A stretch of 53,623 nucleotides of DNA. Origin: Promethearchaeota archaeon (GTDB lineage: Archaea; Asgardarchaeota; Lokiarchaeia; Sigyniarchaeales; SOKP01). The notes beneath the pieces are model-generated. The model was not told where the DNA came from. It ran no database searches and saw nothing but the letters and a program-made list of their open reading frames with translations. The translations under genes were made by a program, and so were the position numbers. The stretch spans positions 1 through 53,623 of the forward strand of contig SDNY01000007.1 in assembly GCA_004524535.1 (NCBI GenBank), in the 5' to 3' direction. Shown in pieces: positions 92 through 43,061 of this stretch (position 1 is its first letter; every line of letters starts with the position of its first letter).

Positions 92-619
92 ATGAGTGAA
101 AAAGGTATAGTGGTAGTACAAGCGCTGGTGAAAGGCGGAGCGGCGAGCGGGGGGCCTCCTATAGGACCGGCTGTAAAGTAAATCAAGTCGAATTACTTAG
201 CCCAAGGTCCTACGGGGATTAATATCAAAGATGTTGTGGACGCTGTAAATGAACAAACTATGATGTTTAAAGGATTAACCGTTCCAGTGAGGATTGAATG
301 TGATCCTGAAACAAAGCAATTTGAAATATTTGTAGAAACTCCTTCGACAGCATCATTATTGTTGAAAGAAATCGGTGTAGAGAAAGGGGCTTCAAATCCA
401 GGGGAGGACAAGATTGGCAATTTAACTATCGACCAAATAATTTCAGTAGCTAATGCTAAAAAAGACATCTTTTTAGATAAGACATTTAAAACTTGTGTTA
501 AAACAGTAATAGGAACAGCGTTATCCGTAGGACTAACTGTTGAGGGTGTGGATCCTAGAATCATTCAAGAGAGAATAGACAAGGGAGAATATGACGATAA
601 AATAAAGGAGGAATCGTAA
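92..619 (+). CDS. rpl11: 50S ribosomal protein uL11, split by a BHB intron (exons 92..174 and 205..619; 165 aa spliced)
   Basis: ATG at 92 gives MSEKGIVVVQALVKGGAASGGPPIGPA. Removing 175..204 gives PPIGPAVGPTGINIKDVVDAVNEQT..., the conserved uL11 N-terminus, in frame with ORF 236..619. Lies upstream of uL1. Confidence 0.95.
175..204 (+). other. 30-nt BHB intron in uL11 mRNA
   Basis: Outer helix TAGGACC(162-168)/GGTCCTA(206-212); central helix GGCT(169-172)/AGCC(199-202); 3-nt bulges GT^A and CA^A; inner helix AAGTAA/TTACTT; in-frame TAA at 179-181. Confidence 0.9.
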
Positions 620-22036: not shown

Positions 22037-22702
22037 TTATCCAAAATCTTCACATATTAGTCGTCTTGCTCCGGGAGTTATAAGTTTCAGATCGTAAACT
22101 AATTCAATGAAACTCACTATCATATGCGTAGTCGCTCCAAAGATAACATAGTTTTTTTCATTATTGGGTGCTCGATAATTATATTTTCCTACCGCAATTG
22201 TATTATTTTTAACTTTATAAGTTCTTTCTCTATAATTTTTTTTATTGGCAAAAAAGGTAATTGGAATCTTAACAATCTCTTGTACTTCCTCTTCACATTT
22301 CGTCATTTTTTGATGCTCATCAACATATCCAACAAAAGGAGTAATTATGAATTTTTTTGGCGTTATATGATCGTCAAAACATCCTAATAATTTGATTTCT
22401 TCCTTTTGAATGGCTAATTCTTCTTTTATCTCTCTTAGCGCAGTATCTTGATAAGTTTTATCAAAACGCTCGTCAAATTTACCTCCAGGAAATGCCATTT
22501 CTCCCGAATGTTTATCACCTTTTCTACTAGTACGGCGAATCAAGACTAAATCATAAGGTTTATTATTGTAAGGGATAATTAGAAAAATTACTGCGGATTT
22601 AACAAAATCTTCATCTACAAAAGAGAGCCTATTATTAGAATTAAAAGATTTTAATTTATTTTTAATAAAATCTTCATTAAAAATAAAATCGATATTGTTC
22701 AT
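22037..22702 (-). CDS. Nudix CoA pyrophosphatase (NudL/PCD1-like)
   Basis: SAV...HSGEMAFPGGK...ALREIKEE, IFGAT motifs. Confidence 0.9.
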   Translation of the reverse strand: MNNIDFIFNEDFIKNKLKSFNSNNRLSFVDEDFVKSAVIFLIIPYNNKPYDLVLIRRTSRKGDKHSGEMAFPGGKFDERFDKTYQDTALREIKEELAIQKEEIKLLGCFDDHITPKKFIITPFVGYVDEHQKMTKCEEEVQEIVKIPITFFANKKNYRERTYKVKNNTIAVGKYNYRAPNNEKNYVIFGATTHMIVSFIELVYDLKLITPGARRLICEDFG

Positions 22703-22727
22703 ATTATTTTTTTTTTTTTTCTACTTA

Positions 22728-23450
22728 TTAAAATTTACTTTTAATCTTTCTTCTGTATTTGATGTAGTCCTTTAATTGTTTGATATTTTCCAATTTAAAC
22801 CGTTTTAATCCAAGTTCTGATAGATCTATGTCATACACAAGTTCAATAAAATTTGAAATCATATACGCAGTTGCACCCCACACTGTGTATTTTTTACGAT
22901 TTTTTTTATTTTTATAATTAAAATAGAAAATTGGGAATTTTTTACCCTCAATATCAATAGCTTGCTCCCTGAAATTTCTTTTACTGATAAAAAAATCGAT
23001 GGGGATTTTTAAAATCTCCTGAACTTCTCTCTCTTCTTTAGTTAAAATTTGATCTTTATCAATAATGCCAATAAAGGGGGAAATGATGAACCTGGTCATC
23101 GTGGGAAAGTCGTCGAGACAGCCTAAGATTTTTATTTTTTCCCTAGGCACTCCAATTTCCTCTTCGGTCTCTCTCAATGCTGTATCTTTTAAATTTTTAT
23201 CATGATTAGAATCGAAACTTCCTCCTGGAAAACTCATTTCACCTGCATGTTTTGAACCCCTATTAGTCCGATGTATTAATATTAAATCATAAGGCTTTTC
23301 CTTATAGGGAATTATTGCAAATAAAACGGCTGATGATTTAAAAAATTCGTCTTTAATAGAGATTCTCTTAGGAGAGTCAAAAGGAAAAATCCTTTTCTTT
23401 ATCAAATTTTTATTAAAAATTAAGTCTAATTTGTCCATGAGTTCTAGCAA
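22728..23450 (-). CDS. Nudix CoA pyrophosphatase (tandem paralog)
   Basis: SAVL...HAGEMSFPGG...ALRETEEEIG, VWGATA motifs. Confidence 0.9.
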   Translation of the reverse strand: MLELMDKLDLIFNKNLIKKRIFPFDSPKRISIKDEFFKSSAVLFAIIPYKEKPYDLILIHRTNRGSKHAGEMSFPGGSFDSNHDKNLKDTALRETEEEIGVPREKIKILGCLDDFPTMTRFIISPFIGIIDKDQILTKEEREVQEILKIPIDFFISKRNFREQAIDIEGKKFPIFYFNYKNKKNRKKYTVWGATAYMISNFIELVYDIDLSELGLKRFKLENIKQLKDYIKYRRKIKSKF

Positions 23451-23521
23451 AAATTTTAAGATATCAGTTATTTACAAAACTTAATATTCATTTTAATAAA
23501 ATTTTTTCTCATTGAACTACT

Positions 23522-23821
23522 ATGAAACTTCCGAAGGAACTCAGAGAGAAAAGCGACCTTAGTGGAACGGCAAGTAAAGGAAAGATATGCTCCGTAAAAG
23601 AATGTGGCGAATCAGCTATACGTTCTCTTTCAGAGAATAAATGGTCAAAGGTTTGTGAAAAAGCAAACTTAATGCTTAATGAAAATAGACTACGTAAAAT
23701 TTTTTTATGTAAAAAACACTATAAAGAAGCCAATAAAATGAGAAAATCAGACGAAAAATTAATCCAAAAAAAGGGCTTTTTGGAAGATTCCACTTCTACC
23801 AAAAGGGGAAAATGGGATTAA
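23522..23821 (+). CDS. Small basic zinc-finger-like hypothetical protein
   Basis: CSVKEC...LCKKH Cys/His pattern. Confidence 0.65.
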   Translation: MKLPKELREKSDLSGTASKGKICSVKECGESAIRSLSENKWSKVCEKANLMLNENRLRKIFLCKKHYKEANKMRKSDEKLIQKKGFLEDSTSTKRGKWD

Positions 23822-32933: not shown

Positions 32934-33515
32934 TTACTTAATTTGCCATATTATTTCATTTCCAATTTGCTTCTTATACAAATAAACCCCGTCCTGAAAT
33001 ACTCTTGGATCTTTTTTACGAATTTTGCAACATCTTTTTAAATTAGCTGCCGTTTGGCCTAGAGATTCTCGGTCAGGCCCCTCAAGGATGATATCATCCT
33101 CTTCGACTTTTATTTTTACATTTTTTTCTATTTTTGCTTTTCTTGGTGCTCTTTCTCCTAAAAAATTTTCTACAAATAATATTTGAGCTCTTTCATCAGC
33201 CCGAACAGTAAACGGGAAATGAGAGTAACAAACTTTTGATACATACTTATACGGAGTCTGCACACCAACAATTAAATTGTGAATAATATTCATGATTGTT
33301 TTTGCCAAGGCAACAGTTTTGTTTTTTGGAAAATGTGAACTGAATATGATTTTATTTTTTTCAATTGATATCTTTATACCTCTAGCATGCGAAAAATCTT
33401 TAGAAATTGGTCCTCCATTAGGTCCTTTTACTATAATTAAATTATCCCCTTTAATTTCAACATCTACTCCCTCAGGAATCTCCAGTGTTTCACTAAAATA
33501 GGCAATTTTTACCAT
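32934..33515 (-). CDS. rpl6: 50S ribosomal protein uL6
   Basis: YSHFP, ENFLGERAPR, KDPRVFQDGVY motifs. Confidence 0.97.
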   Translation of the reverse strand: MVKIAYFSETLEIPEGVDVEIKGDNLIIVKGPNGGPISKDFSHARGIKISIEKNKIIFSSHFPKNKTVALAKTIMNIIHNLIVGVQTPYKYVSKVCYSHFPFTVRADERAQILFVENFLGERAPRKAKIEKNVKIKVEEDDIILEGPDRESLGQTAANLKRCCKIRKKDPRVFQDGVYLYKKQIGNEIIWQIK

Positions 33516-33538
33516 TTTTCCTTAACACAATAATTTAT

Positions 33539-33951
33539 TTAATATATATAACATAAAGAATGTCCACCAATACTTTTTTCTTCAGCTTCTTTTAAACTAA
33601 TTATTCCTTGATTTGTGGTCAAAATAATTAAACCTAAACCAGGAGCAGGAAGTAATTTTCTCTCCAATGCTTCTAATTGGTTAACTGTATAATTTAAGCG
33701 CATCAAGGCCTTACATTCATTGATTTTACCTAACAATGCTATTTTGAATTTACCTTGTCTGCCATCATCATATCTCTCGAACTCGCCAATATACCTTGAA
33801 TAAATCAGAATTTATTGATGTAGGCGTGGCGTTGGAATATTCTTAAGATGTGCTGGTTTAATTTCGAGGCAGGGGTGATAATTACTTCTTTCTTCTTCGC
33901 ATACTCTCCCATCTTGAGCGTGTTACACATATCTGCAAGTGTGTTTGTCAT
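33539..33951 (-). CDS. rps8: 30S ribosomal protein uS8, split by a BHB intron (exon 1 33951..33820, exon 2 33790..33539; 127 aa spliced)
   Basis: Exon 1 MTNTLADMCNTLKMGEYAKKKEVIITPASKLNQHILRIFQRHAY joined to exon 2 IGEFERYDDGRQGKFKIALLGKINEC...LLPAPGLGLIILTTNQG...GGHSLCYIY gives a complete archaeal uS8; position upstream of uL6. Confidence 0.95.
33791..33819 (-). other. 29-nt BHB intron in uS8 mRNA
   Basis: Minus strand CGCCA-C-GCCT-AC^A-TCAATAAA-TTCTGA-TTTATTCA-AGGT-AT^A-T-TGGCG: central helix GCCT/AGGT, two 3-nt bulges, inner AATAAA/TTTATT, outer CGCCA/TGGCG; contains TGA and shifts the frame. Confidence 0.9.
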
Positions 33952-34082
33952 ATTTTAATGTTTTTTTATTTATTCATAATTAATAAAATTATTCTAAGTT
34001 CTTCTAAATAGTTATGGATTAAATTTTAATTTTATTAATTAATGCCGAAAATTGAAAGAAAACTACAAAAATCTATAAGGAT

Positions 34083-35840
34083 CTAAATTTTTTTTTTTGC
34101 CTTCTGCATCCAATAATAATAATTTGATTGTGACTGGTCTGGAAATAGGGATCTAAACATTGAAAGACTCATATTAGGATTTTTTTTATATTCGCTAAGA
34201 AATTTAAGATAGTCTAACTTCATAAGATCTTCTTTAATATCTTCATAAGATATATTATATACTTCTATTGGAGTAAGTCTTTTAAATTTAATATATTCTA
34301 AGAAATTTAGAATACCCCCCCACAAGCATAAACCACCCTTAAAACCCCAAAACAATGAGATTTGCTTTCTCAATCTATCAATTGAATCTTGCTTTAAATA
34401 AATGGCTATTTCTCTTAAACTTCTGCCTTCTGATAACATTTCTGCAATAATTGGTTTTACAATTATAATTCGTGCATCTTTATTCGACCCACACCATTGT
34501 GGAATATATTCTTTTCTTACAGTCTCCCAAGGGACGCCTTTTAATTCGAAATCCATCTCGTATACTTCATATCCTTTTTTGAAAAGCCTTATGAGATGTT
34601 CTTTTATAAGTTCCAACCGTTTTGTTTGAAAATCTGTATTCCAAAATATGTTTGATAGATTAGCCACTCCATGACTAGATTCGTGAGGAAAGCCATTTTC
34701 TGAAAGATAAGTCGCACTATACCCCTGACTCATTAATATTTCTAAAATAGGTTTAAGAAAAAGAATCCTTGCGTTGTCTATACTAACCCAATATTCATTA
34801 ATTCTTTTAAGTACAACATCTTTAGAACATATTATACCATATTCAATTCCAAGAATTTCTGCGATTTTAGGACTCCAGAATCCTCTAGCTATTAGTGGAA
34901 TTAATAAAATAGGAGGTATAATTATTTTTGAACCCCCTTTTCCCCCCGTATCTATATTACCGATTCTATTCTTGAATTCTTCTTTAAATTTTTTAATCCA
35001 ATCAATTTCACGAGTTCTTAATTTTGAATCCGACCAACAGATCTCCAAAATCTCCCAAGTGAAGACCCCATTTTTTCCAATAAAACCGATCCCGTCTTTG
35101 GAGAGTCTTGTAAGCTTCTTTAGATTTTCACTTGCTATATTTTCAAAATCTCTCATAAGCTGATAAATTTCTAATTCTTTATTATTTTCAAAAGCATCAA
35201 CTTGATACCAAAACCATCGAGAAGAAAATCTCTCAGTAGTAAAACCAATTTGGATTAAACCGTCATCTATCGGATTCATTCCTATATCTTTAATTTGAGT
35301 AATTTTATATATTATTCCAGACCATTGATATTTCGCCCTATGAGAATAGATATCTATTAAAGTGAGAATTGGATGAGTACCACCATATCTTATATTCGAA
35401 TGTTCTTCTCTATCTTTTTCAGCTATATATTGCTGAAGTCCAAATATAAAGGGTTCAATCAGTTCATCAAAATCAATAGGGTATGGTTTAGCTATATATC
35501 CCTCGCTAACCTTATGAGATTTTTTTGAATATTGTGTTATTCCAAATTTTGCGATTAAGTTATCTGAGCTCATCTGATATTTTTGCCTAATCCAATTTTC
35601 ATATATTTTATTAAATTTAGGTAAAGTTATGAATATTAAGTTCTCCATCCCTTTAATATAGTGTTCGCTTGAGATGATATTTTGATTTAAATAAGCTTTA
35701 GAGCATAGATCGCAAGTATATTCCCAATTCAAAAAGAACCCATTATTTAGCAATAGTGGAAAATGAAGATCTAAAAATCTGTAAACAAGAGTTGTATCGT
35801 CTTGTTCAGAGTATTTAATCGACAAATTTTTTAGCGACAA
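34083..35840 (-). CDS. Free-standing GIY-YIG endonuclease-like protein with C-terminal tandem helical repeats, inserted between uS14 and uS8
   Basis: SGIIYKIT...QIGFTT.RFSSRW...FTWEILE...REIDWI...GNIDTGGKGG follows the GIY-YIG motif order (Tyr of YIG replaced by Gln). Confidence 0.7.
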   Translation of the reverse strand: MSLKNLSIKYSEQDDTTLVYRFLDLHFPLLLNNGFFLNWEYTCDLCSKAYLNQNIISSEHYIKGMENLIFITLPKFNKIYENWIRQKYQMSSDNLIAKFGITQYSKKSHKVSEGYIAKPYPIDFDELIEPFIFGLQQYIAEKDREEHSNIRYGGTHPILTLIDIYSHRAKYQWSGIIYKITQIKDIGMNPIDDGLIQIGFTTERFSSRWFWYQVDAFENNKELEIYQLMRDFENIASENLKKLTRLSKDGIGFIGKNGVFTWEILEICWSDSKLRTREIDWIKKFKEEFKNRIGNIDTGGKGGSKIIIPPILLIPLIARGFWSPKIAEILGIEYGIICSKDVVLKRINEYWVSIDNARILFLKPILEILMSQGYSATYLSENGFPHESSHGVANLSNIFWNTDFQTKRLELIKEHLIRLFKKGYEVYEMDFELKGVPWETVRKEYIPQWCGSNKDARIIIVKPIIAEMLSEGRSLREIAIYLKQDSIDRLRKQISLFWGFKGGLCLWGGILNFLEYIKFKRLTPIEVYNISYEDIKEDLMKLDYLKFLSEYKKNPNMSLSMFRSLFPDQSQSNYYYWMQKAKKKI

Positions 35841-37974: not shown

Positions 37975-38400
37975 TTAAATGATTAAACTTGATATTGAAG
38001 CAAGCCTAGGAAACATTTCTGCTGCTTCTCGAGCAATCGGGCCTCTAATTTCTGTCCCTTTTGGTTCACCTTCTTTTGTCACAAGAACGGCGGCATTATC
38101 TTCAAAACATAATCTTGTGCCATCTATTCGGCGATAAATCCTCTTTTGCCGGACAATTACGGCTTTGAGAATGCTGCCTCGAAGTTCTGGTTTACCTCGT
38201 TTAACAGTAACAGTTACTATGTTACCTATAGTTGCTTTAGGTAATCGTCTTAATCGCGTTTTACTATGATCAACATTAATAATTTGGGCAATTTTAGCAC
38301 CCGAATTATCTGCAATAAGCACTTTTGAACCATTTTGTAATCCGTAGCTTGTTCGAGCTTTTGTCACCCGTTTTCTTCCTAATTTTCTTCGAGTTCCCAT
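37975..38400 (-). CDS. rpl14: 50S ribosomal protein uL14
   Basis: IADNSGAK, AVIVRQKR, FEDNAAVLV, KGTEIRGPIAREAA motifs. Confidence 0.97.
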   Translation of the reverse strand: MGTRRKLGRKRVTKARTSYGLQNGSKVLIADNSGAKIAQIINVDHSKTRLRRLPKATIGNIVTVTVKRGKPELRGSILKAVIVRQKRIYRRIDGTRLCFEDNAAVLVTKEGEPKGTEIRGPIAREAAEMFPRLASISSLII

Positions 38401-38448
38401 TTAGTTTACACCTTAACTTGAGATTTTCTCTAATAGGATAAATGTTTT
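38379..38448. repeat. Copy 1 of a 70-bp imperfect direct repeat (uS17 3' end, spacer, first 22 nt of uL14)
   Basis: Matches 40760..40829 with 6 mismatches and no gaps. Confidence 0.9.
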
Positions 38449-38567
38449 CGATAAATCCTTAAAACTCTCTGAAGTAGCTTTGAAGCAGGGGTAATAATTA
38501 CTTCTTTCTTTTTAGCAAATTCTGCGTTTTTCAGTTGATTACATGCGTCAGCGAGCGTATTTACCAA
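38430..38567 (-). pseudogene. rps8: Orphan 5' fragment of a second uS8 allele (45 codons)
   Basis: GGAGG SD plus TTG; MVNTLADACNQLKNAEFAKKKEVIITPASKLLQRVLRIYRKH, 30/42 identical to uS8 exon 1, then runs into the duplicated uS17 end and stops. Confidence 0.88.
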
Positions 38568-38976
38568 TTATAAAAAACCTCCTTTTAATCTCATGATCTT
38601 TCATTCTGATACTAATGGTAAATAATTGATAAAATTTTAACTTTATTAAAATTAATAAAAACAAATATAAGAATAGCAAAACTAAAAAATCAGAATGAAT
38701 CTATCCATATAAAAGAAGGCTCTCGGAAGGCTCGGAAAAATGTTGACAGGCTCTAAACATTAGAAAAAAACAAAAAAAAGAAGATAAGCGTAAAAAAATT
38801 AGATTAAAACCCTAACAGAAATATGTCAAATTTTTTTTTCTTCAAATGAATTTTTTATCGTTATTATTCTGCATTAAATCTTAAATAAAAACTGCTCTCA
38901 GTTATAAAAATGTTAAAGGAGAAGAGAGTAAAAACTAAAATAAATATGTCAAATTTTCCTTTTTTTAAATAGATCT

Positions 38977-39912
38977 TCATTTCCTAATTTTATGGAAATC
39001 TGATGGAAATGATATCACCCCAAGAGATGAGTCAAGCTTATTACCATAAAAACTTAATTCGCATAAATCTTTTAGCTTTAAAATTGTGTCGGGAACGGAC
39101 TCCAAGCGATTATTTCCAACAAAAAGCCTCTGTAATGAGGAAAGATCACCGATCGATTCCGGTAATTCTTGAAGCTCGTTAGAATATAAATATAATTCCT
39201 CTAATCTCTTTAAATTGCCGATAGACTCGGGGAGGCTCCTTAATTTATTATGATTTGCATGGAATCTCTTTAAATTTGTTAAATTGCCGATCGAATCTGG
39301 AAAAGCGGAAAGTTGGTTATGATGGATTGTTAAATATCTTAAATTCTTAAGGTTGCCAAACGATTGCGGAAGCTCGAAAAGTTGATTATCGGATATGCCC
39401 AAATATCTCAAATTCTTAAGGTTACCAAATGATTCGGGAAGGCATCTAAGGTAATTTTTAAATATCTCAAGATAAGTCAAATTGTAAAGGGCTCCAAAGG
39501 ATTCTGGTAATATTTCTATTTTATCATTGATTAAGCTTAAATCTTTTAATGAACATAATTCACAGATTGAATCTGGTAGTACTTTCAGCTTACTTCCATA
39601 TATATCTAATTTTTCTAATGATTTAAGGTTCCCAATAGATTCAGGAAGCTCGGATAAATAATTATTATCTAGATTTAATTCTCTTAGCCATTTTAAATTA
39701 GCGATTGATTCGGGGAGTTGTGTAAGACCCACTCCATTGCATTGAAGCCAACAAACGTGATTATATGCCGTCATAAAGCTTGCTGATGGTGTTTTTATGC
39801 CAATTTCAGTGACGAGTGAAAATTCAATATCTAATTCTTGCTCTAATTCACTAAGAAAAAGTACCTCTGATTCAATTAATTTGGCTCCTCTGAATTTAAT
39901 CATGGTCTTCAC
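38977..39912 (-). CDS. Leucine-rich-repeat protein
   Basis: About ten 23-aa LxxLxLxxNxLxxLPxSIGNL repeats. Confidence 0.93.
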   Translation of the reverse strand: MKTMIKFRGAKLIESEVLFLSELEQELDIEFSLVTEIGIKTPSASFMTAYNHVCWLQCNGVGLTQLPESIANLKWLRELNLDNNYLSELPESIGNLKSLEKLDIYGSKLKVLPDSICELCSLKDLSLINDKIEILPESFGALYNLTYLEIFKNYLRCLPESFGNLKNLRYLGISDNQLFELPQSFGNLKNLRYLTIHHNQLSAFPDSIGNLTNLKRFHANHNKLRSLPESIGNLKRLEELYLYSNELQELPESIGDLSSLQRLFVGNNRLESVPDTILKLKDLCELSFYGNKLDSSLGVISFPSDFHKIRK

Positions 39913-39959
39913 ATAATTTTAATCAATCAGCTTATTTAAATATTATGAGGGTATGAATT

Positions 39960-40124
39960 TTACGCCTTCATTTTATCTAGGGTATCGTGTTCGTCTTGGG
40001 TAAAGTCAACAAACGCCTCAAGAGTTTTAATTCCCGAATCAAAGGATTCTTTATTTTCATATACAAAGGTAAGGCTGGTAGTATTCCCTTGTAATGTAAT
40101 TCCCATAGGGTTTTTATTTGGCAT
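39960..40124 (-). CDS. 54-aa hypothetical ORF (not in ORF track)
   Basis: MPNKNPMGITLQGNTTSLTFVYENKESFDSGIKTLEAFVDFTQDEHDTLDKMKA*; open frame only. Confidence 0.4.
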   Translation of the reverse strand: MPNKNPMGITLQGNTTSLTFVYENKESFDSGIKTLEAFVDFTQDEHDTLDKMKA

Positions 40125-40362
40125 ACTACTAAAGAATTAACTCACAAATAAATAGATTTACCGACCGCCGATTTAGTGATTTTCTCTATTCCCACACCAG
40201 AGGAGCTCTACCCCATTTAGATTTAAATTGCTTAGATTTGATATATAAAAAGATACACCACAAATAACAAATCCTTTACTCTCTTTGATTATAAATTAGC
40301 GTATTTCCTTTATTATTTCAATCAACAAGAATCTTAAATCAAAAAAAAAAACCAAAACAAGA

Positions 40363-40683
40363 GTGAGAGAAAGAATGTATAACACCCCCAAGAGATGTGA
40401 CAATAGATATTGTAATCGTGAACCCGAATATAAAATTTCCTATCCGAACGGAGAGACTTTTTTCCGTTGTGCCCATCATTTTACAGCCTACGAAATTGAG
40501 AGAGATAACGATAATTGCATGATCGAATCTCTTATTTTTGATGAAAGCTGGATAACCGAGTGTGAAGAATCCTCAGAAATCATTAGCTGGTTAAACCGAT
40601 TCATTGAAGAAAAGAACTTAGACGATAAAATCATAGAGTTTTTTGACGACAACCACATGCACCACCTTATGCCCATTAAATAA
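40363..40683 (+). CDS. Hypothetical Cys/His-containing protein
   Basis: CDNRYC...CAHH possible zinc site; only sizeable plausible ORF at this position. Confidence 0.55.
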   Translation: MRERMYNTPKRCDNRYCNREPEYKISYPNGETFFRCAHHFTAYEIERDNDNCMIESLIFDESWITECEESSEIISWLNRFIEEKNLDDKIIEFFDDNHMHHLMPIK

Positions 40684-40759
40684 TCGGAGATCCCGCTTTG
40701 GCAACTTACTCGGATGGATTCGAGATTGAACACATCTAAAACCGACGGAAGTTTTAGAT

Positions 40760-40829
40760 CTAATTTTCTTCGAGTTCCCATTTAATTCACACCTCAACTT
40801 GAGATTTTCTCTAATACAATAAATGCTTT
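40760..40829. repeat. Copy 2 of the 70-bp direct repeat (true uS17 end plus abortive uL14 start MGTRRKL)
   Basis: Matches 38379..38448. Confidence 0.9.
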
Positions 40830-42538: not shown

Positions 42539-43018
42539 CTAACTAGGTAATTCGTATAAAACAATCTCTAGATGAGTTAAATGTTTATTCCTCGCTGTCG
42601 ATCTTCCGTGCGCACGTTCAATGTTTCTTTTTATTATTCTTCCTCTGCTCGCTGCAATATGGATAACTCTACATAAATCGATATCTAAACCTTTATATTC
42701 AGCGTTAGATTCTACAGCTGTGAGAACTTCGTAAATTCTTGCCGCCGCTTTTTGAGGGTATCTTCCCGCATACCATTTAAATTGTTTTAAGTCTTTTCTA
42801 TGAGCCTGTTTTTTCTTATGACGCCTAAACGGCACGGATTGTTTTAGCTGAATTACATTCTCTAAAAAAGTTTTGGCTTGGTCCAATCTCATACCTTTTA
42901 GGACAGCACATATCTCTCTCGCATGTTTAGGTTTTATTCTTAAATCCCTGCCTGATGCCTTTGCTATGCGATCAACGTCCCACCGTTCCTCAGTGAAAGA
43001 ATATCCCCAGTTTGGAAT
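42539..43018 (-). CDS. rpl22: 50S ribosomal protein uL22, apparently initiating at ATT
   Basis: The frame extends upstream of the track's Met to (I/M)PNWGYSFTEERWDVDRIAKASGRDLRIKPKHAREICAVLKGM; an in-frame TAA lies two codons before the ATT. Confidence 0.9.
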   Translation of the reverse strand: MPNWGYSFTEERWDVDRIAKASGRDLRIKPKHAREICAVLKGMRLDQAKTFLENVIQLKQSVPFRRHKKKQAHRKDLKQFKWYAGRYPQKAAARIYEVLTAVESNAEYKGLDIDLCRVIHIAASRGRIIKRNIERAHGRSTARNKHLTHLEIVLYELPS

Positions 43019-43061
43019 TTTTTACCAACTCATTTAGCTTTATTTTTGATTATTTTAGTTA

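Follow-up and report, generated by a model that had tools for sequence, protein, structure and literature searches.

How does an Asgard archaeon make its ribosomal protein uS8 from a gene that is cut in two by 29 nucleotides, with a stop codon in the reading frame of the first half and the second half in another frame? The gene lies in a ribosomal-protein cluster (S4e, uL5, uS14, a 585-aa ORF, uS8, uL6, eL32, eL19, uL18 and uS5) on the minus strand of the window, by which we mean the whole stretch of 53,623 nucleotides analysed here (contig SDNY01000007.1 of a Promethearchaeota archaeon). The coordinates of the split gene, of the predicted RNA motif, and of comparable features in the same genome and in its relatives are collected in Table 1. 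Read without splicing, the exon 1 frame stops after 48 codons, and exon 2 stands in a frame other than that of exon 1 because 29 is not a multiple of three. The original prediction had described a 29-nt split with an in-frame TGA and a frame change, and our coordinates and ORF reading agree with it exactly.

Table 1. Split genes, the predicted BHB motif of uS8 and insertion sites among relatives. Locations are window positions unless a contig (C) of the same genome is named; G000 is the genome from which the window comes, and other G numbers are family genomes.
Feature	Location	Strand	Remarks
uS8, exon 1	33820..33951	minus	44 codons; ATG at 33951; ends ...QRHAY; Pfam PF00410 positions 2-41
uS8, predicted 29-nt BHB intron	33791..33819	minus	borders 33820/33819 and 33791/33790; last 5' bulge base, inner hairpin, 3' strand of central helix, first two 3' bulge bases
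uS8, TGA in exon 1 frame, within the predicted intron	33805..33807	minus	read as 33807..33805; ends unspliced 48-aa ORF
uS8, exon 2	33539..33790	minus	83 codons plus stop; starts IGEFERYDD; PF00410 best stretch 92-126; coding part 33790..33542, stop codon 33541..33539
uS8, whole hBHBh' motif	33784..33831	minus	from MFE fold and register analysis
uS8 motif, outer helix	33831-33827 with 33788-33784	minus	5 bp in the MFE fold of 33775-33840
uS8 motif, central helix H	33825-33822 with 33796-33793	minus	GCCU/AGGU, 4/4 pairs
uS8 motif, 5' bulge	33821-33819	minus	AC/A; predicted cut 33820/33819
uS8 motif, 3' bulge	33792-33790	minus	AU/A; predicted cut 33791/33790
uS8 motif, inner helix	33818-33811 with 33804-33797	minus	loop 33810-33805; 8/9 pairs, one C.C mismatch
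uS8 site A	AY / [ILV]GEFE		G000, G142 (29 nt); G014, G022, G013 (30 nt); same position as in G000
uS8 site B	IGE / FER		G020 (32 nt); G105, G140, G143, G144 (29 nt); 9 nt downstream of site A
uL11, predicted 30-nt BHB intron	175..204	plus	exon 1 92-174, exon 2 205-619; in-frame TAA
uL11 site	TGG / ASGG		G060 (36 nt); strict BHB
uL11 site	GGPPI / GPAV		G006 (35 nt); relaxed BHB
uL11 site	GPAV / GPTG		G000, G008, G004 (30 nt); strict BHB
uL11 site	GPTGIN / IKD		G104, G063 (28 nt); strict BHB
E2 ubiquitin-conjugating enzyme, 29-nt BHB insert	C123:17016-17044	minus	inside HPN codons; exon 1 = UQ_con 1-73, exon 2 = 80-138
CdhD, 30-nt BHB insert	C8:3057-3086	minus	Pfam 7-135, then 138-227
AOR (aldehyde:ferredoxin oxidoreductase), probable BHB insert	C144:21930-21959	plus	exon 2 = AFOR_N 33-199
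DeoC-type aldolase, probable BHB insert	C16:3517-3548	plus	exon 1 = 32-220 of 229

Excision of 33819..33791 in silico gave rise to a uS8 protein of 127 aa. Compared with the intact uS8 of a relative in the same genus (G001), 107 of the 127 residues are identical and there is no internal gap, which confirms the earlier claim that standard cuts would yield the conserved uS8 motif and a 127-aa protein. In exon 2, the first possible start codon of the frame comes only after 18 residues, yet these 18 are identical to those of G001. Selection therefore acts on them within a single continuous protein, and this speaks against a pseudogene or a protein made in two pieces.

We searched the whole genome from which the window comes (3.66 Mb in 198 contigs, 99.1% complete, 4.4% contamination) with the PF00410 profile. 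Only the split gene and a 45-aa N-terminal fragment (38430-38567) were detected, i.e., there is no second full-length uS8 in this 99.1%-complete draft genome. It had been stated earlier that the cluster holds no other full copy; the profile search extends this to the genome, in which no complete rps8 was found besides the split gene. A decaying pseudogene, with uS8 function supplied from elsewhere or by an unassembled copy, might be considered for a draft in 198 contigs with 4.4% contamination, and the partial uS8 at 38430-38567 shows that duplications do occur. We rate this as highly improbable. In addition to the missing second copy, the insert is the sole lesion of the gene, the exons are intact and conserved, and ten genomes, several of which are 96-100% complete, each have one clean insert, with a common geometry at the RNA level (see below).

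To establish that the insert is present in DNA, we compared positions 33000-34600 with the Logan contigs of four DNA sequencing runs; a search for runs that contain this stretch gave DNA runs and no RNA run. A 10,686-nt contig of run X1 matches the entire region without a single difference, but the window itself may derive from X1, so this support is not independent. Run X2 comes from a second sample of that study; one of its contigs (130 nt, 33722-33851) bridges the insert with one difference and no gap. A diverged contig of X2 (602 nt, 27 differences and 2 gaps) likewise contains an insert, of identical net length; among its listed differences, changes at 33816, 33817 and 33799 would, in our reconstruction, turn the C.C mismatch of the inner helix into pairs. 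In several contigs of X2, X3 and X6 the match ends at 33793 and is followed by exon-1-like letters; these are intron-less alleles of related organisms. An assembly or sequencing artefact, with the 29 nt not in the organism's DNA at all, could be suspected of a window that comes from a metagenome-type assembly and for which the only run containing it whole may be its own source. Logan's own assembly of X1 and the bridging contig of X2 nevertheless reproduce the insert, which answers the concern about misassembly raised with the original prediction. The diverged contig and analogous inserts in nine other genomes point the same way, and we regard an artefact as extremely improbable.

The minus-strand RNA around the insert is predicted to fold into an hBHBh' motif. 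Its anatomy as first described (outer CGCCA/TGGCG helix, central GCCT/AGGT helix, two bulges and an inner helix) was found to be exact by both the MFE fold and the register analysis. A BHB intron is expected to have a central 4-bp helix with two 3-nt bulges; in uS8 both bulges are 3 nt long and lie, at the canonical register, on opposite strands of a fully paired helix H. A BHB intron should also be flanked by one helix or more, and two were found, the inner one with 8/9 pairs and the outer one with 5/6 pairs in the register analysis, where it follows a C.U mismatch (33826/33789) abutting the 3' bulge. This mismatch and the C.C mismatch in the inner helix are the imperfections of the motif. 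Symmetric cuts in the two bulges would, as judged in silico, give a functional joined RNA, and the structure is kept despite sequence change among homologues.

We also estimated how often such a structure would arise by chance. The folding energy of the motif does not stand out from chance (z = -0.89), with 39 of 200 shuffled sequences folding equally well. By contrast, only 5 of 5000 mononucleotide shuffles attain the BHB geometry at the sole protein-restoring register, and pairs are lost when the 3' partner is shifted by 1-3 nt. A self-splicing group I or group II intron was rejected, since the insert is only 29 nt long and a ribozyme core takes hundreds of nucleotides. No Rfam family was matched in the window or in 33500-34100.

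We estimate at roughly 85% the probability that the 29 nt at 33819..33791 are a BHB intron in the uS8 pre-mRNA. In the proposed mechanism, folding of the transcript would pair the end of exon 1 (GCCU) with the 3' end of the intron (AGGU), leaving a 3-nt bulge on each strand, with the intron hairpin on one flank of the central helix and an exon-exon helix on the other. EndA, most likely as a two-subunit alpha-beta enzyme, would cut after the second base of each bulge. RtcB would then ligate the exons and probably circularise the 29-mer, and the joined mRNA would be translated into the normal 127-aa uS8. We infer cutting and joining in the cell from what is observed, namely the anatomy of the split gene, its restored product, nine relatives with the same architecture, the enzyme genes and the presence of the insert in DNA. 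The essential uS8 protein probably depends on mRNA splicing, and the intron itself probably has no function of its own.

Judged by sequence, the comparison among relatives is the strongest evidence for a BHB intron in uS8. We surveyed 134 family genomes, 132 of which gave a uS8 match, and read all interrupted genes individually. The gene is intact in 121 genomes, interrupted in 10 and cut by a contig end in one (G099). The insert is absent from all 8 same-genus reference genomes; among 39 relatives, uS8 is uninterrupted in 35, including 8/8 of the same genus and 16/16 that belong to the order but not to the family. Six genera are represented among the interrupted genes (g1 1/9, g2 5/41, g3 1/7, g6 1/6, g7 1/1 and g13 1/1); being kin, these ten genes stand for fewer than ten independent events, and the genomes are metagenome-assembled. 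Two insertion sites are used, and in genus g2 the four introns at site B resemble one another and appear to go back to a single event.

A single cut rule is common to all ten interrupted genes: a 4-nt exon strand and two bulge bases precede the first cut, and the hairpin, a 4-nt intron strand and two further bulge bases lie between it and the second cut. Application of this rule restores AY[ILV]GEFE in 10/10 cases, and the products align to G001 without a gap at the junction. The inner three pairs of helix H are kept in every gene, the outermost pair being G.A in five, and at least five of the first six pairs of the inner helix are formed in all ten. For each gene, 2-18 of 5000 shuffles match the BHB geometry, and slid partners lose pairing. 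Helix H varies among relatives and still pairs (GCCU/AGGU, GCCU/GGGU, GCUU/AAGU and GGCG/CGCC). The arms of the hairpin show covariation when G140 is compared with G143, and no sequence relationship is seen among the arms of the five introns at site A. Although the three inserts of 30 nt preserve the frame, they carry TAA, TGA or TAG, so read-through is no explanation. The alignment to relatives that had been suggested as a check has in this way produced uS8 inserts with the same BHB geometry in nine other family genomes.

The same genes bear on translational bypass or recoding, in which the ribosome would hop or shift over the 29 nt and no splicing would be required, gene 60 of phage T4 being the model. 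Bypass of the gene 60 type has matching take-off and landing codons. In G000 the last codon of exon 1 (TAC) and the last triplet of the intron (TAT) both specify Tyr, so that one peptidyl-tRNA could take off and land, and a hairpin is present in the gap. However, take-off and landing triplets match in only one of the ten interrupted genes, the other landing triplets being TAA, AAT, TAA, TAG, CAA, AAA, AAG, AAG and AAT. There is no stop directly after the take-off codon in G000, and a single frameshift would not rescue the in-frame 30-nt inserts with their stops. The BHB register, on the other hand, accounts for 10/10 genes, and we consider bypass very unlikely.

The outer helix of the predicted motif is good only in G000 (5/6) and G013 (4/6), with 0-2 of 6 pairs in the remaining 8/10 genes. 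By their predicted pairing, most uS8 inserts of the family are relaxed HBh'-type motifs. Since the outer helix is mostly missing and a G.A stands in H in half of the genes, we infer that the relatives' uS8 motifs require a splicing enzyme of broad specificity. Two EndA-domain ORFs were found in G000 (C100:30773-31375 and C84:30333-30935), each of 201 aa and each with N and C domains. One of them is closest to PDB chains 3p1z_B (E 8e-37) and 3ajv_B (E 2e-35), and the second gave much weaker PDB chain matches; such a strong/weak pair would fit a catalytic alpha subunit accompanied by a structural beta subunit. One RtcB gene is located on contig C101, around 22508-23815. By gene presence, the host encodes both the endonuclease and the RtcB ligase that a BHB intron calls for. 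An (alpha-beta)2 enzyme with a loop linked to broad specificity has been described for Asgard archaea (PMC5829648), and a preprint reports two EndA paralogues together with heavily interrupted tRNA genes in 44 of 60 Asgard genomes (10.64898/2026.10.13.758758).

The tRNA genes of G000 were examined as well. Aragorn detected only 13, of which 8 were called with an intron, and Rfam RF00005 gave at least 15 (150 of 280 candidates scored). So few detectable tRNA genes in a near-complete genome fit heavy tRNA interruption, and most of them are presumably hidden by multiple or non-canonical introns.

The closest known case to the uS8 insert is the cbf5 pre-mRNA intron of Crenarchaeota (Desulfurococcales and Sulfolobales), a BHB-like intron of 16-44 bp in a protein-coding gene (PMC2738675, PMC10485636); the 29 nt of uS8 fall inside this range (PMC2738675). 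According to these sources, some cbf5 introns shift the frame and others do not, they have been gained and lost among relatives, and the splicing endonuclease that cuts them is a two-subunit enzyme in their hosts. G000 encodes two EndA paralogues, which may form an enzyme of this type. The host gene differs: uS8 is interrupted here, not the codon of a catalytic residue in cbf5, so that it would be another intron of the same kind. Unlike the crenarchaeal case, the host is an Asgard archaeon, with two sites 9 nt apart in one gene and several more split genes. Splicing of cbf5 has been demonstrated experimentally, whereas that of uS8 is predicted from sequence.

A second precedent is the HVO_1309 mRNA of Haloferax volcanii, in which a BHB is cut by EndA and the spliced form is the major product by RNA-seq (reviewed in PMC10485636). 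It is unlike uS8 in its euryarchaeal host, its homodimeric enzyme, and its being a single non-ribosomal gene. The review names cbf5 and HVO_1309 as mRNA BHB cases and expects more to be discovered. Non-canonical BHB introns in Asgard tRNA genes are described as abundant in the lineage and repeatedly gained in the preprint cited above (10.64898/2026.10.13.758758), in which the term "mRNA" has 0 occurrences. These tRNA introns share the motif with the uS8 insert and presumably the EndA/RtcB machinery. Unlike tRNA, the uS8 host RNA is translated: the cuts must keep the reading frame, and splicing must precede translation. Full-text searches of the main text of openly accessible papers turned up no description of a BHB intron in any ribosomal-protein gene, nor in any protein-coding gene of Asgard archaea. 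The uS8 insert would thus add a new member to a known kind of intron, with an Asgard host and an essential ribosomal protein as its setting.

The original prediction counted the uS8 intron as the second in the window, next to a separate one. The latter is most likely the 30-nt insert in uL11, a perfect BHB (H GGCU/AGCC 4/4, inner helix 6/6 and outer helix 6/6), and introns at the same site in G008 and G004 have a changed H that still pairs. Across the family, PF03946 (uL11) matches 122/134 genomes, and in about 58 of the 122 the match is late-starting (profile position 8-27), split or stop-containing. We inspected the uL11 inserts of seven relatives together with the intact gene of G001. Short inserts were seen in the uL11 N-terminal domain at no fewer than four codon positions across the family; the translation of G005 contains two inserts, with no match in the strict BHB search.

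Inserts of 29-32 nt were also found in G000 in the genes of E2 and CdhD and, as probable cases, of AOR and an aldolase. The first exons of AOR and uL11 and the second exon of the aldolase are too short for separate Pfam scoring. A further candidate insert (C101, 21656-21685) was set aside for want of Pfam confirmation. Together with the nine further family genomes, the Logan contigs of X1 and X2 and the EndA and RtcB genes, these other split genes back the BHB-intron reading given to uS8 in the first place. The uS8 and uL11 intron sequences gave chance-level short matches only against the rest of the genome, i.e., no repeated intron sequence family was found.

We also scanned for BHB structures with ORF restoration. 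A blind scan of the window was far too noisy. In the genome-wide scan the share of candidates restoring an ORF stayed at 3.0-3.8% whatever the structure score, so there is no overall enrichment; most of these join neighbouring genes. In a register-shift control with loose thresholds there was no enrichment (2105 canonical vs. 1933-2142 shifted). Strict thresholds gave a modest excess, 235 vs. 196-208 and 101 vs. 72-85. The codon-usage score is weak on short exons (0.6 for uS8 exon 1).

The uS8 intron is one of the ~30-nt BHB introns in protein genes of this Asgard family, with patchy presence and absence. The two uS8 sites, the four or more uL11 sites, E2 and CdhD, and probably AOR and the aldolase in G000, lead us to suggest tentatively, at somewhat less than even odds, that the family hosts a population of such micro-introns that repeatedly enter protein-coding genes. 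Unrelated hairpins at the same site suggest independent insertions at hot spots. There may possibly be a few tens of BHB introns in protein genes per genome, which is a rough guess given the modest excess in the register-shift control.

Could the intron be a switch instead of a passive passenger, with the efficiency of EndA/RtcB splicing setting uS8 output? In HAC1/XBP1 splicing of eukaryotes, a protein-only endonuclease cuts at an RNA structure, ligation is of the RtcB type, and a frame change alters the protein; the nuclease is Ire1, which recognises twin stem-loops and not a BHB, and the process is stress-regulated. The uS8 intron would work in a similar way, with no homology implied. The shared ligation chemistry speaks for a switch of this kind, as do an essential, highly expressed host gene and the fact that uL11 is hit too, at several sites and in many relatives. 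Against it are the patchy distribution (10/132 genomes, 1/9 in the genus), the non-homologous hairpins at the same site and metabolic genes that are split alike. Neutral or selfish elements fit these three observations better than a conserved regulator, and we consider the switch unlikely.

If the micro-intron population is real, essential messages in close prokaryotic relatives of eukaryotes would need splicing before translation. This would imply either that transcription and translation are uncoupled in time or space, or that truncated products are tolerated. mRNA BHB splicing is documented in very few archaeal genes; here it would serve an essential ribosomal protein, and it would recur in uL11 and in genes of metabolism and of the ubiquitin system. 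How a prokaryote with coupled transcription and translation copes with introns in highly expressed messages is a testable question, and the uS8 case is relevant to ideas on how eukaryotic gene structure arose. Genes of this type will come out of automatic gene calling as broken or missing, with consequences for annotation and marker-based completeness estimates.

Several other irregularities were seen in the ribosomal-protein cluster. The 585-aa ORF (34083-35840, minus) separates uS14 from uS8; in the relatives read (e.g., G140, G143 and G144) these two genes are immediate neighbours. The ORF matched no Pfam family and has no second copy in the genome. Farther upstream on the minus strand, ~2.4 kb (38400-40790) are inserted between uS17 and uL14. 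This insertion starts with a duplicated uL14 N-terminus (MGTRRKL..., from 40781 downward) and contains small ORFs and a 311-aa leucine-rich-repeat protein (38977-39912; LRR_14, LRR_8). It is a rearrangement inside the ribosomal-protein operon.

The 45-aa uS8 fragment at 38430-38567 (minus) is located just upstream of uL14. It is a copy of exon 1 only, ends in ...KHLSY followed by a stop, within one codon of the intron site, and is nearer to the family consensus than exon 1 of G000. A similar stray fragment of uS14 and uS8 in G081 (L051) ends just after AYIGEFE. The region of the uS8 intron may be a hot spot for recombination breakpoints. By eye, the fragment forms 3/4 H pairs and 8/10 inner pairs with the 3' half of the intron (~2% chance in AT-rich sequence); its use as an alternative first exon 4.6 kb upstream was judged unsupported.

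The N-terminus of uL22 (42893-43032, minus) looks broken, with a TAA right after ATG AGT TGG. Beyond the TAA, conserved N-terminal sequence (…NWGYSF…AKASGRDLRIKPKHA…) runs on in frame, with no start codon before the Met of MRLDQ. Translation might begin at an unusual start codon, or there might be recoding or a tiny intron; a short hairpin spans the TAA.
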